Source: Candidatus Aenigmatarchaeota archaeon
Lineage (GTDB): Archaea; Aenigmatarchaeota; Aenigmatarchaeia; GW2011-AR5
NCBI GenBank assembly: GCA_016198685.1
Contig: JACQID010000006.1
Coordinates: forward strand, 64,001 to 128,000
Length of the DNA stretch: 64,000 bases
Direction of reading: 5' to 3'
Part shown: one piece after another, positions 1,596-6,895 of the stretch
Numbering within the stretch: position 1 is the stretch's first letter
Layout: every line of letters starts with the position of its first letter
The notes under the pieces: generated by a model
The model's database searches: none
What the model was told of the DNA's origin: nothing
The model's input: only the letters and a program-made list of their open reading frames with translations
Position numbers and translations under genes: made by a program

Positions 1596-2849
1596 ATGGA
1601 AGCAGATCAGGAGTTAGTTTTAAGCAATTCAGCAACAAGCGGCAATATATTCTCGCAGTATATTGAAAGCCCGAGTATTTTCACAGATAAGCGCGTTTTA
1701 ACCTCTTCTTTTGTTCCTGGTAGCATACCGCACAGGGAAGAAGAAATAAAGCACATAAGCTCCGTTCTTGCCCCTATGCTCAGGGGTTATCATGCCAATA
1801 ACGTCTTTGTTTATGGGACATGCGGCACAGGAAAAACTATCTGCTGCAGATTCGTTGTTTCCCAATTACAAGAAGCGGTCAAAGCCGCAGCAACACAAAT
1901 TAAGGTCATATACATAAATTGCAAGATGGAGCGGGTTTCCGATACCGAGTACAGGCTTTTTGCCCAAATGCTCAAGCAACTTGGTGAGGAAGTGCCGTAC
2001 ACAGGATTACCAACTGACGTAATCTATAGGAAGTTCTTTGCTAAGGTTGCTGAAAAGAAGCAGAGTGTCATCATCATATTAGATGAGATAGACGCGCTTT
2101 ACAAGAAAGTTGGTGATGATTTCCTTTACAACATAACCCGTGCCAACAATGAATTAGGAGAGGCAAACTTGAGCATAATAGGCATAACCAACGACATATC
2201 TTTCAGGGACAATCTTGACGTGAGAGTGAAATCATCATTAAGCGAAGAAGAAGTGATGTTCAGGCCTTACAATGCCGTGCAGTTAAGGGACATATTGTCA
2301 TCCCGTGCCAAGGACGGTTTTGTCAAAGGGGCCGTGAGCGAGAGCGTCATAAATAAGTGTGCGGCTCTGGCAGCTCAGGAGCACGGCGATGCGCGCAGGG
2401 CTTTGGATTTGTTGAGGGTTGCCGGGGAAGTTGCTGAAAGAATGGGGGAAACAGTCGTCAAGGAAAGGCATGTTGACGTAGCCGAAGAAAAAATAGATCT
2501 TGACAGGATAACCGAGACCGTTAAATCCCAGCCGGCACAATCCCAGCTTGTGCTTTACACGATAATAAAGATGAATGAGGAAGCCAAGCAGAAGGAAAAA
2601 TGGGCCGACAGAAGGCTGCTCACAGGAGACATATTCTCTAAATATGAGGAACTTTGCAGGGCCAATGGCGCAAAGGTTCTTACGCAGCGCAGGATAAGCG
2701 ATCTCATAGGTGAACTGGATATGTTCGGCATAATAAATGCCAAGGTCATATCTAAGGGAAGGCACGGCAGGACCCGAGAGATATCCTTAGCCATGAACGA
2801 AACCGCATTAGGCAAAGTAAGAAACTACCTTATGAACAGGTTTGGATGA
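1596..2849 (+). CDS. cdc6: Cdc6/Orc1 replication initiator (AAA+ and winged helix)
   Basis: Walker A YGTCGTGKT, Walker B ILDEID, GDARRALDLLR, wH region LTQRRISDLIGELDMFGII...SKGRHGRTREI. The ORF track start is 1581; ATG 1596 follows a GGGGTG SD-like site. Confidence 0.97.
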   Translation: MEADQELVLSNSATSGNIFSQYIESPSIFTDKRVLTSSFVPGSIPHREEEIKHISSVLAPMLRGYHANNVFVYGTCGTGKTICCRFVVSQLQEAVKAAATQIKVIYINCKMERVSDTEYRLFAQMLKQLGEEVPYTGLPTDVIYRKFFAKVAEKKQSVIIILDEIDALYKKVGDDFLYNITRANNELGEANLSIIGITNDISFRDNLDVRVKSSLSEEEVMFRPYNAVQLRDILSSRAKDGFVKGAVSESVINKCAALAAQEHGDARRALDLLRVAGEVAERMGETVVKERHVDVAEEKIDLDRITETVKSQPAQSQLVLYTIIKMNEEAKQKEKWADRRLLTGDIFSKYEELCRANGAKVLTQRRISDLIGELDMFGIINAKVISKGRHGRTREISLAMNETALGKVRNYLMNRFG

Positions 2850-3913
2850 TGGACAAAGCTGATATCGTACGGCATTATTTTGACCGGCAGCAGCTTCTGA
2901 CTCCGGCGGCGCTTGATAAGCTATCTGCTGCAGGCAGGCTGCCGGAAACAGATTCCGGGCTTTTTGTCATTGATAAAAGCGATCTTGAGCAGGACAACAT
3001 ACGGATTCTTAAGTGTCTCCAGAGCAGGCCGAAGGAGGTAGACACGGATATGTTCCTGAAATTTTATACGTCCAAATACAACAAAATGCGCGATATATTT
3101 ACTGCGCGTTTCAACAAGAATTTTATCTCCTTGAATAAGGTAGACGCTTCGCGTTCTGAAATAGCGGTATTCGGCATAGTCAAGGATGTGAAAGACAAGA
3201 CAATAGAGCTTGAGGATATGACATCCTCGGTCTCTGTAGTTTTTGAAACTCCGTTGGAAAAAGTGGAGCGCGATGACGCCATTGCAGTCGAGGGTGTAAG
3301 CGGCGGCAAAGTAATCTACGGCAAAAAAATAATGTTTGCAGATGTTCCATTGAGGCAGCCGGCGACGGGCACAGGCAAGGCGTGTTTTATTTCCGATTTG
3401 AGGCTTAGCGAAGCTCCGCGCAAGGAAGCTGAGAAATTCTTTTCGTGGTTCCAGAACCAGGACATCAGGAACCTTTTCATTTGCGGAGACACAGGGGATC
3501 TTGCCGCGCTTGAGGCTATAGTACGCAGATATTGTAGCGGAAAGAATATCTTTGTCGCCCCGGGCGAAGCGGATGACAAAGAGTATCCGCGCTTGCCGCT
3601 TAAGACGCCTAGTGTCACAGCACTTTCGGATCCCGCTATCGTTGAAATCAACGGCATAAAGATACTTGTTATTCATAACTTTGAGATAGGGATGCTGCGC
3701 AAGCGTTACTTGGGCAGGAGCAAGTCTATCTTGCCAGATGACTACTTGGTCTTGGAAGATGTTCCTGATATAGTGCATTGCGGCCATACAGGAAAACCGT
3801 TTGTCCAGAATTACAAGGCCATAACCATAGTCAACAGCGGGTCAATACTGGAGGAATTCAAGCCCGTTGTCATAGATTTTGCCACACGCGAGGTAAGGCA
3901 GGCTGCTTTGTGA
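2846..3913 (+). CDS. DNA polymerase D small subunit (DP1)/B-subunit homologue, predicted nuclease-dead
   Basis: DP1 architecture: N-terminal helical LLTPAA segment, OB fold (EIAVFGIVKD...IELEDMTSSVSV), calcineurin-like fold with degenerate motifs ISDLRL, ICGDTGD, APGEAD, IHNF, VPDIVHCGHTG. Start overlaps the cdc6 stop (ATGA). Confidence 0.88.
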   Translation: MMDKADIVRHYFDRQQLLTPAALDKLSAAGRLPETDSGLFVIDKSDLEQDNIRILKCLQSRPKEVDTDMFLKFYTSKYNKMRDIFTARFNKNFISLNKVDASRSEIAVFGIVKDVKDKTIELEDMTSSVSVVFETPLEKVERDDAIAVEGVSGGKVIYGKKIMFADVPLRQPATGTGKACFISDLRLSEAPRKEAEKFFSWFQNQDIRNLFICGDTGDLAALEAIVRRYCSGKNIFVAPGEADDKEYPRLPLKTPSVTALSDPAIVEINGIKILVIHNFEIGMLRKRYLGRSKSILPDDYLVLEDVPDIVHCGHTGKPFVQNYKAITIVNSGSILEEFKPVVIDFATREVRQAAL

Positions 3914-3985: not shown

Positions 3986-6658
3986 ATGGCACTTGTTTTT
4001 CAGATACTTGATGTGGATTATTTTCTCAATGGCGATAAGCCTGTAGTCCGCCTCTTTGGAAGAAGTGACGCCGGCAATGCCGTATGCGTATTATGCAGGG
4101 ATTTTCTTCCTTATTTTTACATAAGGCCGAAGAATGAAGAGGCTTTGGATGACGTAAAGGAGATCCTTTCCATAGAAGAAGCGGAAAAATTATTGGCAAT
4201 AGGATATTCAACCAAGAAAACAAGGCTTTTGAAAATCACCATATCGAAGCCGCAGGATGTTCCCATGATTAAGGAACAGCTCCTCAGCCAAGGCATAGCA
4301 GAAGAAGTCTTTGAAGCCGATATATTATTCAAGAACAGGTTTCTGGTTGACCATGACCTGCACGGCATGCAGTGGGCAGAAGCAGACGTTGTCAAGACCA
4401 GTACCAGCACGGTAAAGGTTCCTGCCTTTGAGATGAAATCCATAAAGCCGATGGACAGGAAAGACAACGCCAAACTTTCAATACTATCATTTGATATAGA
4501 GTGCGTGCCATCCGATCCCAACAGGCCACTGGATTCCAAGAAAGACCCTGTAGTCATCATATCACTCTCATTCAACGTTCCTTACAGGGGAACCACGAGC
4601 ATAGTGCAGGTCGCCAAGCCTGTCAACGGAAAAGGGCTGCAGGGATTTCCCAATGAAAAAGACATGCTGGAAGGGTTTCTGCGCGTTATTGACGAATATA
4701 ATCCGGACATAATCACAGGCTACAACATAAACACATTCGACATACCCTACATACTGGAGCGAATGCGGGTGCACGGAATACCGCCCATGCTTGGCAGATG
4801 CAAGGACAAGCCGGCTTATAATAAAAGCACAGGAGTCACGCAGGAATCCATAATTCCGGGCAGGGTGGTTGCGGATCCTTACCAGATATTGAAGAGGGAC
4901 CCAAGAATCAAGTTCAGCCGTTATGACTTAAACACAATATGCAAAGTCCTGCTTGGCGACACCAAAATGGACGTTGAGTACAGGGAGATGCCCAAGCTTT
5001 GGAACGGGCCTCTCGAAGGCGTCTTGCGTTTTGCAGAATATGCACGCAAGGACGCAGAGCTTAATCTGCGTCTTGTGGTTGAAAAGGACATGCTATCCAA
5101 TTTCATAGAAATAGCCAAAGTTTCAGGTACTGTGATGCAGGACACATTCGGCGGCCAGACTTTGCGAATAGACAATATGCTCCTCTATGAGTTCAGGAAG
5201 CGCGGTTATGTTTTACCGGCCAAACCTGATGCCAATTTAATGAATAAACGTACCAATGAAAGGGAAAAAGCAGGGCTCAAAGGCGCAACAGTTCTTGAGC
5301 CGAAGAAAGGATTGCATGCCGAAGGCTGCATACTGGTCATGGACTTCAAGAGCCTATATCCAAGCATAATGAGAACGTTCAATACGTCTCCCGATTCGCT
5401 TCTTGTCGATGATTCGGTCGGCGAGTTTTATACGTCGCCGACCGGCGCGAAGTTCGTGCCTGCATCTGTACACGAAGGAGTGTTTCCGTACATCGTCGGA
5501 AAGCTGCTTGACAGCAGATCAGAAGTCAAGGGGCAGATGAAGGATGCTGACGGCGAAATGAAAAAAATATTGAATGCAAGGCAATATGCGTTAAAAGACC
5601 TTGCCAATTCGTTCTACGGATACACAGGCTATCTGCGGGCGCGCGTTTATGACATACGGGTTGCGAGCACGATAACGGCCATAGGAAGGGAGAACATAGA
5701 GAAGACAAAGGACTTGATTGAAAACAACTTCGACATTGAGGTCGTATATGGCGATACTGACTCGGTTTTCATCAAGACCAAGACCACGAACCTTGAGGAT
5801 GCAAAAAAAATCGGCGAGGATATATCCAAGTTCGTGAGTGAAAGATTGCCAGGTTTTCTTACCCTGGACTTTGAAAAGATATACAGAACGTTCCTTATTC
5901 TTACAAAGAAAAGATATGCCGGATGGAAGTTCGAATTCGGGAAGAATGGATGGGAAGATTCTATAGAGATGAAAGGGATAGAGACGGTGAGACGCGATTG
6001 GTGCAAGCTCGTTTCTGAAACGATGAGAACCGTGCTTGACATAATACTGAAGGAAGGAGACCTGCAGAAGGCGGTCAATGAAACAAAGAGGGTCATAATA
6101 CAGCTCCGCAACAATGAAATAGATTTCGACAAGCTGACCGTTGTAAAAGGAATAACAAAATCTCTTGGAAGTTATGACGGCATGTTGCCGCACATAGAGC
6201 TGGCAAGGAAACTTGCGCAGAGAAACCCCCACGACCCGCCGAAGATCGGCGACCGCCTCGGGTTTGTCATAATCAAGGGCAATCAGATGCTGTCGAAACG
6301 GGCGGAAGATACGAAATATGCAAAGGACAACAAGCTTCAGATAGATTCTGACTACTATATTAATTCCCAAGTCTTCCCCCCTGTAGAGAGGATACTTTCT
6401 TCGGTCGGGGTCGAAAAGAGCGAAGTGTTCGGCTCTGGCCGTCAGTCAACGATAGCAGACATCATGTTCGGAACAAAGCGCAAAATGAAGCATGAAATAG
6501 CCATCAATTACGGCACAGTAGCCGGCTGGGAGGGTCTGGTTTGCCAGAAATGCGCGAAGTCGCATCCGAGAATGCCTTTAAGCGGCAGATGCGAATGCGG
6601 CGGCCCGCTTCTTTTTTCATATCAGGGAAGCGCCGCGCAGAAAGTAGTGACCGAATAG
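3986..6658 (+). CDS. polB: Family B DNA polymerase with intact exonuclease and polymerase motifs, Pol-delta-like core, C-terminal Cys4 zinc finger
   Basis: ExoI SFDIEC, ExoII GYNINTFDIPY, ExoIII YARKD, motif A DFKSLYPS, motif B KDLANSFYG, motif C YGDTDS, KKRYAG, KGIETVRRDWC; PIP-like QSTIADIM (6443-6466); CQKC-x12-CEC (6542-6598). Confidence 0.97.
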   Translation: MALVFQILDVDYFLNGDKPVVRLFGRSDAGNAVCVLCRDFLPYFYIRPKNEEALDDVKEILSIEEAEKLLAIGYSTKKTRLLKITISKPQDVPMIKEQLLSQGIAEEVFEADILFKNRFLVDHDLHGMQWAEADVVKTSTSTVKVPAFEMKSIKPMDRKDNAKLSILSFDIECVPSDPNRPLDSKKDPVVIISLSFNVPYRGTTSIVQVAKPVNGKGLQGFPNEKDMLEGFLRVIDEYNPDIITGYNINTFDIPYILERMRVHGIPPMLGRCKDKPAYNKSTGVTQESIIPGRVVADPYQILKRDPRIKFSRYDLNTICKVLLGDTKMDVEYREMPKLWNGPLEGVLRFAEYARKDAELNLRLVVEKDMLSNFIEIAKVSGTVMQDTFGGQTLRIDNMLLYEFRKRGYVLPAKPDANLMNKRTNEREKAGLKGATVLEPKKGLHAEGCILVMDFKSLYPSIMRTFNTSPDSLLVDDSVGEFYTSPTGAKFVPASVHEGVFPYIVGKLLDSRSEVKGQMKDADGEMKKILNARQYALKDLANSFYGYTGYLRARVYDIRVASTITAIGRENIEKTKDLIENNFDIEVVYGDTDSVFIKTKTTNLEDAKKIGEDISKFVSERLPGFLTLDFEKIYRTFLILTKKRYAGWKFEFGKNGWEDSIEMKGIETVRRDWCKLVSETMRTVLDIILKEGDLQKAVNETKRVIIQLRNNEIDFDKLTVVKGITKSLGSYDGMLPHIELARKLAQRNPHDPPKIGDRLGFVIIKGNQMLSKRAEDTKYAKDNKLQIDSDYYINSQVFPPVERILSSVGVEKSEVFGSGRQSTIADIMFGTKRKMKHEIAINYGTVAGWEGLVCQKCAKSHPRMPLSGRCECGGPLLFSYQGSAAQKVVTE

Positions 6659-6697
6659 CGGAAATTTTTATATAATGGCCAAGACTAAGTAATGGTT

Positions 6698-6895
6698 ATG
6701 TCCAACAAGCACGTCAAGACGATAAACGGCAAGAAATATTACTACGAGTCCGTTCGTAAAGGCAGGAAAGTCACATCGCGCTACATCGGCCCGGCAGAAG
6801 AAACAAAAGAGCAGATCAGTGAAAGTGTAGTTGCAGATAAAAAGCCTATCAAGGAAGAAGACCTCATTACGCCGGATGATCATTATATCGGCTGA
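6698..6895 (+). CDS. Small basic protein with KTINGKKYYY...KVTSRYIG three-strand motif, possible nucleic-acid binder
   Basis: Own TATA (TTTTTATATA 6665-6674) about 24 nt before ATG 6698; Lys/Arg/Tyr-rich beta-type N-terminus and acidic tail. The ORF track start is 6692. Confidence 0.6.
   Translation: MSNKHVKTINGKKYYYESVRKGRKVTSRYIGPAEETKEQISESVVADKKPIKEEDLITPDDHYIG

Follow-up and report, generated by a model that had tools for sequence, protein, structure and literature searches.

A family-B DNA polymerase with a DP2-type zinc finger beside a nuclease-dead DP1 homologue in an Aenigmatarchaeota archaeon

The stretch of DNA analysed here (the window) is 64,000 nucleotides long and comes from contig JACQID010000006.1 of a Candidatus Aenigmatarchaeota archaeon. 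At positions 3986-6658 it encodes the main family-B DNA polymerase (PolB) of a small genome, a protein that continues past the usual end of such enzymes into a tail with a four-cysteine finger. This protein is very probably the catalytic subunit of a eukaryote-like, two-subunit replicative polymerase, in which a zinc ribbon of the type of Zn-III in the PolD subunit DP2 docks the DP1-like protein encoded upstream, DP2 itself having been lost. A PolB core with a DP2-derived docking finger and a nuclease-dead DP1 is an archaeal counterpart of the design of Pol alpha, delta and epsilon, in which a catalytic subunit is joined to a B-subunit. By domain, motif and context features, all of those examined being present, the window PolB is assigned as an orthologue of the published B6-aenigma1 (PolB-DP2CTD) polymerases; the polymerase type is already known.

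Homology of the tail finger to Zn-III of DP2

The tail contains Cys853, Cys856, Cys869 and Cys871 and no other cysteines, a CxxC-x12-CxC arrangement. An initial annotation of the window had compared the tail with a DP2 C-terminal pattern and had taken it for a PolD-derived, DP1-binding module with a likeness to DP2 and to the eukaryotic polymerases. It named generic ribbons such as TFIIB and RPB9 as the matches that would speak against this origin. A profile was built from 25 tails that represent many families of the phylum and share 36-59% identity with the window tail, and it was searched against the PDB. DP2 came first and always at Zn-III, with E-values of 2e-7 for 6knb_B and 4.2e-6 for 6hms_B and 6t8h_B. 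The next family was the lid of adenylate kinase (E 0.017), and TFIIB and RPB9 were absent from the matches. The DP2 pattern of the initial annotation was correct: amino acids (aa) 1130-1165 of Thermococcus kodakarensis DP2 align residue for residue with the window finger. The origin of the finger from DP2 Zn-III is supported by the profile evidence, but only the ribbon was taken over and not the whole C-terminal domain (CTD) of DP2. The likeness to DP2 is significant, but similarity to the eukaryotic CTDs is not directly detectable. The CTDs of Pol alpha, delta and epsilon were absent among the PDB matches of the 25-tail profile at E-values up to 10. The Pfam family zf-DPOE was the most frequent sub-threshold match, found in 11 of the 25 tails (best E 0.021; window 0.14).

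Other searches lead to the same family. The NCBIfam DP2 model matches aa 852-886 of PolB at profile positions 1043-1078 of 1125. When the whole genome was searched in six frames, the finger was the only near-significant match to the DP2 model, one other match having an E-value of 0.066. An hhalign comparison of the 25-tail profile with the DP2 tails of PolD-bearing Aenigmatarchaeota gave a probability of 96.9% (E 1.9e-10, 37 columns), and the window tail alone matches the DP2 open reading frame (ORF) of one of these genomes, G137. A profile search of 1.84 billion representative proteins returned 107 matches, and those that covered the whole profile were PolB tails. All 10 of the long finger-only matches that were scanned carry PolC_DP2 domains, with the match about 85 residues before the C-terminus. 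The motif common to the tails and DP2 exceeds the cysteines and reads F-x-C-x-K-C-x-x-x-Y-R-R-x-P-L-x-G-x-C-x-C-G-G. With a single sequence the signal is faint: in a phmmer search of the tail against the PDB, DP2 was first at E-values of 0.64 (T. kodakarensis) and 1.3, and Pfam gave nothing on the window tail at E up to 0.1.

These profile and motif comparisons identify the PolB finger as a homologue of DP2 Zn-III. By homology with DP2, the finger most likely binds one zinc ion, and zinc is expected instead of an iron-sulfur cluster. The pattern is not a chance one: none of the 25 tails departs from the glutamine of a short motif that precedes the linker (see below), from the four cysteines or from the P, G and CG(G) of the finger. 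The linker differs in length and sequence among homologues. In the AlphaFold2 (AF2) model of the tail, the predicted local distance difference test (pLDDT) averages 67.7, falls below 50 at model residues 35-44 and reaches 81-86 over the ribbon.

Four other proteins (P0068, P0079, P0089 and P0113) are family-B polymerases of about 780 aa, whose thumb ends differently and whose exonuclease match is of the RNase_H_2 type. They end in a DP2-like finger, Y/V/H-R-R-P-x-L-x-G-x-C-x-C-G-G, which in two of them is preceded by Q-Q-T-L. They may represent a second PolB lineage with such a finger.

Distribution of the tail and of DP2 in the phylum

The genome assembly (935 kb in 8 contigs) is 93.7% complete, and DP2 was not found in it either by a search for the DP2 N-terminal domain or by the six-frame search with the DP2 model. 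In a sample of 151 Aenigmatarchaeota genomes the tail is present in 138, where it nearly always ends a frame of 880-930 aa. DP2 occurs in eight, namely every one of the seven genomes of family f9 and one genome outside it, where DP2 sits on a 3-kb contig. The tail query finds a single match in f9, at the Zn-III of a DP2 of 1102 aa. Across the 151 genomes, tail and DP2 are complementary.

A DP1 homologue is found in 140 of the 151 genomes. In genomes with a tailed PolB it measures about 300-400 aa, and the f9 form has intact motifs and a length of 460-523 aa. Where the DP1-like gene and PolB were both found (122 genomes), they lie within 6.5 kb of each other in 116, and in the six exceptions they are on different contigs. 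The DP1-like gene is upstream and co-directional in 88 of the 116 linked genomes, usually directly adjacent. The genomic context of the tail fits a DP1-binding module because the genome lacks a detectable DP2, an inactivated DP1 homologue is encoded directly upstream, and tail and DP2 are complementary in the phylum.

The f9 genomes (G005, G016, G027, G059, G097 and G137 among them) have a complete PolD. Their DP2 is 1100-1600 aa long, with Zn-III and helices, and terminates in a Q-x-S-L-x-x-F box. Their only PolB is of a second, tail-less type that is 27-29% identical to the tailed PolB of the window. This low identity led us to reject the idea that the tailed PolB is simply the resident PolB of f9 with a finger added. 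Replacement of DP2 in place, beside DP1, is also unsupported: in all six f9 genomes inspected, DP1 and DP2 are on different contigs. The sole DP2 outside f9, on the 3-kb contig G090:C64, lies beside a DP1 fragment in a genome that also has a tailed PolB. It seems likely that this contig is contamination or a fragment of foreign origin.

The DP1-like neighbour and the proposed docking

The DP1-like protein still has its OB fold and its helical N-terminal region; its phosphoesterase fold is shortened, and three internal segments are deleted. Its phosphoesterase motifs were compared by alignment with the canonical DP1 of the PolD-bearing f9 relatives. The window protein has D-L-R for D-L-H in motif I, GDTGD for GDxxDG in motif II, GEAD for GNHD in motif III, IHN for YHG in motif IV and GHTG for GHLH in motif V. 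The metal ligands lost are the histidine of motif I, the asparagine and histidine of motif III and the second histidine of motif V.

The contact between DP1 and Zn-III is known from PolD, where the Zn-III loop K-x-R-R-x-P fits into an electronegative groove that DP1 forms between its OB and phosphoesterase domains (PMC6355029). Nanomolar binding to DP1 has also been reported for a Zn-III peptide of 20 residues (cited in PMC6355029). It is therefore plausible that a tail consisting only of the ribbon holds the DP1-like subunit. In yeast two-hybrid assays of aenigmatarchaeal orthologues, DP1 binds the tailed PolB (PolB-DP2CTD) and not the other PolBs (PMC12680538). We also predicted the complex of the DP1-like protein, zinc and the PolB tail with alignments. 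The median score was 0.50 and one control reached 0.40, and this prediction is not used as evidence either way.

In the arrangement that we propose, the DP1-like protein (2846-3913) would most likely receive the ribbon in its OB/phosphoesterase groove, as DP1 receives Zn-III of DP2. The DP1-like protein, without its nuclease ligands, would act as a scaffold like a B-subunit, and proofreading would be left to the exonuclease of PolB, with DP2 presumably lost. The N-terminal domain of DP1 binds Gins51 in Thermococcus (PMC9023282), which suggests that the nuclease-dead DP1 may have been retained as a link to the helicase. One plausible role of the DP1-like protein would be to connect the polymerase with GINS through its N-terminal domain.

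Evidence against the proposed arrangement and other explanations of the tail

Several observations weigh against this arrangement. Only the ribbon is kept: with 37 columns aligned, the tail lacks the helices that in DP2 flank Zn-III and make further contact with DP1. Between its cysteine pairs the window finger has K-S-H-P-R-M-P, as against a family consensus of K-S-Y-R-R-x-P, and misses one of the two arginines of the docking loop; R-R is kept in 14 of the 25 tails. The second cysteine pair is CxC instead of CxxC, and the PIP-like box described below has no aromatic pair of the canonical kind. The ribbon fold itself is generic, and structure does not discriminate between its relatives, all Z-scores of the AF2 tail model being at most 3.5 against 48,161 PDB representatives. 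Finally, Zn-III in PolD also lines the DNA duplex (PMC6355029). This last property, the lost arginine and the absent helical part of the DP1 interface speak for another reading, in which the DP2-derived finger mainly contacts nascent duplex DNA or acts as a clamp-like DNA-binding element, as Zn-III and clamp-1 do in PolD. In that case the DP1-like protein would come in by other means or would work independently. We regard this as improbable. The DP1-like gene is linked near-universally with the tailed PolB, the tail is complementary with DP2, and in the published two-hybrid work it is only the tail-bearing PolB of the phylum that DP1 binds. Moreover, the flexible linker of about 25 residues would make a fixed clamp geometry on DNA unlikely.

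The generic fold also bears on whether the resemblance to DP2 arose by convergence, the tail being a zinc ribbon with an unrelated role, such as stability or the binding of another partner. The structure search returned Nob1, ribosomal proteins, TFIIE alpha and RpoP/Rpb12 at Z 2-3.5, and DP2 was no higher (6t8h_B was 15th, with Z 2.5). This agrees with the published likeness of DP2 fingers to RpoP, TFIIE alpha and Nop10 (PMC7544198). Single-sequence searches are weak as well (E 0.64). Convergence is nevertheless very unlikely: profile searches single out DP2 by five orders of magnitude over other ribbons, the common motif runs well past the cysteines, and the tail occurs where DP2 is missing and DP1 is kept. 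An error of assembly or gene calling that joined a PolB to a DP2 fragment might be suspected in a multi-contig assembly from a phylum known largely from metagenome-assembled genomes. It is hardly credible, since the same continuous frame of about 880-930 aa recurs in 138 of the 151 genomes, from many families and assemblies, and also in independent public protein sets. In addition, the window contig is long and the PolB frame has no stop codon within it.

An internal PIP-like box

Upstream of the linker lies QSTIADIM, a degenerate form of the PCNA-interacting-peptide (PIP) box. The initial annotation, which had located and spelled out these elements exactly, placed this motif where archaeal PolBs normally end and counted about 60 extra residues after it. 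There are 63 residues between the box and the stop codon, and two comparisons bear out its position. The alignment with Pyrococcus furiosus PolB (3a2f_A, 775 aa) stops at aa 814 of the window protein, which is P. furiosus residue 756, so that the box falls within what would be the last 20 or so residues of a normal PolB. In PolD-bearing Aenigmatarchaeota, the PolBs without a tail terminate in Q-x-x-L-x-x-F at the same spot, 8-12 residues past the conserved end of the thumb.

The canonical PIP pattern is Q-x-x-[L/I/M]-x-x-[F/Y/W]-[F/Y/W/L]. Q820 and I823 fit this pattern, and positions 7 and 8 are I-M, outside it. Among 31 representatives of clusters at 50% identity, the consensus is Q-x-x-L-x-[D/E]-aliphatic-[F/I/L/M/V], with the leucine in 27 and the acidic residue in 24. 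Position 7 is aliphatic throughout the family and position 8 is phenylalanine in just seven of the 31. As the aromatic pair is missing, we call the box PIP-like only. Compared with the canonical PIP box of archaeal PolB, as in the P. furiosus PolB-PCNA complex (3a2f), it occupies the same place with respect to the thumb-domain end and keeps the glutamine and the aliphatic residue at +3. It differs in that the aromatic positions are aliphatic and the motif is internal instead of terminal. The AF2 model has a short helix at the box, with modest confidence, and a PCNA gene is present in the same genome.

From these features we infer that the box may bind PCNA. A more specific proposal is that the internal Q-x-x-L-x-[D/E]-aliphatic-hydrophobic motif would be a working, non-aromatic PCNA-binding box, with the ribbon alone holding the inactive DP1. 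We advance this tentatively, as a possibility that is rather more apt to fail than to hold. The texts of PMC7544198 and PMC12680538 contain no mention of an interaction with PCNA.

The polymerase gene and its surroundings

The features of the window that are discussed here are collected in Table 1. The core domains of PolB are matched by Pfam as DNA_pol_B_exo1 (PF03104, E 1.1e-35) and DNA_pol_B (PF00136, E 1.9e-108). In the translation, the exonuclease motifs (FDIE, NxxxFD, YxxxD) and the polymerase motifs (DxxSLYPS, KxxxNSxYG, YGDTDS) are intact, and the frame is free of internal stops up to the stop codon at 6656-6658. In the PDB the best match of the whole protein is p125 of human Pol delta (E 4.3e-108), with Thermococcales PolB about equally close (E 1.8e-105). 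The HMMER alignment with p125 extends to p125 residue 1030. The window PolB is 54-88% identical to PolBs from genomes named Candidatus Aenigmatarchaeota.

Table 1. Positions of the polymerase, its C-terminal elements and the two upstream genes in the window
Feature	Residues	Position	Strand	Evidence
orc1/cdc6 initiator gene	422 aa	1581..2849	+	Cdc6_C, Cdc6_lid and AAA domains
DP1-like small subunit	355 aa	2846..3913	+	NCBIfam PolD small-subunit models (2.5e-31), Metallophos_2, PDB DP1 matches
PolB, probable catalytic subunit	890 aa	3986..6658	+	translation, Pfam and NCBIfam matches, PDB matches
Degenerate PIP-like box QSTIADIM	aa 820-827	6443..6466	+	translation, alignments, conservation, AF2 model
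Basic linker of variable length, predicted disordered	aa 828-850	6467..6535	+	homologue comparison, pLDDT
Four-Cys zinc ribbon, assigned as homologous to DP2 Zn-III	aa 851-882	6536..6631	+	profile searches, alignments, model
Short C-terminal tail and stop codon	aa 883-890	6632..6658	+	translation, DP2 comparison

The genes follow one another in the order orc1/cdc6, DP1-like, PolB. The stop codon of orc1/cdc6 overlaps the start of the DP1-like gene by 4 nt (ATGA), and PolB starts 72 nt past the stop codon of the DP1-like gene. The three appear to form a single transcription unit. On the same strand, 34 nt 3' of the PolB stop, is a 67-aa ORF (6692-6895) with the motif G-K-K-Y-Y-Y-E-S-V-R-K-G-R-K-V. 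It matches no Pfam family, its sole match being at chance level (E 0.059).

The window copy of PolB has no intein. Among the orthologues of the tailed PolB, many reach 1300-1840 aa (P0005, P0008-P0010, P0039 and P0057; genomes G105 and G118), and P0005 has an intein and LAGLIDADG domains. The genome also has a second PolB, a tail-less protein of 764 aa encoded on the minus strand of contig C1 at about 168.7-171.0 kb. Its C-terminus, L-L-A-N-G-L-K-R-F-G, has the leucine and phenylalanine of a PIP box, with the glutamine substituted; its orthologues in PolD-bearing relatives have the complete Q-x-x-L-x-x-F.

Relation to known polymerases

The PolB group B6-aenigma1 was defined by Kazlauskas et al. 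in 2020, who also describe the absence of DP2 and the inactive DP1 and propose that the C-terminal motif was acquired from zf-III of DP2 (PMC7544198). A 2025 study in Nat Ecol Evol describes the aenigmatarchaeal tail as a degenerate DP2CTD that is shorter than the one of Baldrarchaeia (PMC12680538). The window protein shares with B6-aenigma1 the phylum, the family-B core, one four-Cys C-terminal motif that is nearest to DP2 Zn-III, the lack of DP2 and a retained but inactivated DP1. Nothing of substance differs from the published description.

With the CTD of DP2 (6hms, 6t8h, 6knb) the tail shares the Zn-III ribbon over about 37 residues, most of the K-x-R-R-x-P-L-x-G-x-C docking loop and a DP1 homologue as the presumed partner. 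In DP2, Zn-III has helices before and after it, about 60-65 residues follow the finger, and the protein terminates in a PIP box. In contrast, the PolB tail has no helical bundle and no terminal PIP box, only 19 residues follow its last cysteine, and its PIP-type motif lies upstream of the finger instead of at the extreme C-terminus. As compared with PolD, the core is of family B and not a double-psi beta-barrel, and the partner nuclease is inactivated. Eukaryotic Pol delta, alpha and epsilon follow the same logic, with a family-B core, a C-terminal metal module and a DP1-derived subunit without nuclease ligands. Their CTD, however, has two motifs, CysA and CysB, separated by helices, whereas the window tail has a single Cys motif and no helical bundle.

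A related PolB fused to a DP2-derived C-terminus is PolB3 of Baldrarchaeia (formerly 'B6-aenigma2'), which has a full-length DP2CTD and binds DP1 in yeast two-hybrid (PMC12680538). This CTD exceeds that of the window protein in length and has helices and two metal motifs; the window protein is by comparison a minimal version. Two PolBs of about 1000 aa (P0051 and P0064) have tails with two Cys motifs separated and followed by helices, and P0051 terminates in a canonical Q-x-x-L-x-x-F-I box. Both resemble the full-length DP2CTD type that is ascribed to Baldrarchaeia.

Implications

What is added here to the published work is modest. It comprises the conserved internal PIP-like box, which is discussed in neither PMC7544198 nor PMC12680538, and the CxC variant and weakened docking loop, with one arginine lost, in the window lineage. 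It also comprises numbers for the complementarity with DP2 and for the synteny of DP1 and PolB in 151 genomes, along with the orc1/cdc6-DP1-PolB gene order. The window is one further well-assembled example of this polymerase type.

The system shows that a PolB core could take the place of a PolD core within the archaea, a point made earlier for this phylum (PMC7544198). If the tentative proposal for the internal box is true, the aenigmatarchaeal enzyme would have two attachments, to PCNA through the old PolB terminus and to the inactive DP1 through a finger made of Zn-III only. The ribbon alone would then suffice to hold a B-subunit, and the enzyme would be the smallest natural version of the layout of thumb, PCNA motif and metal module found in eukaryotic replicative polymerases.

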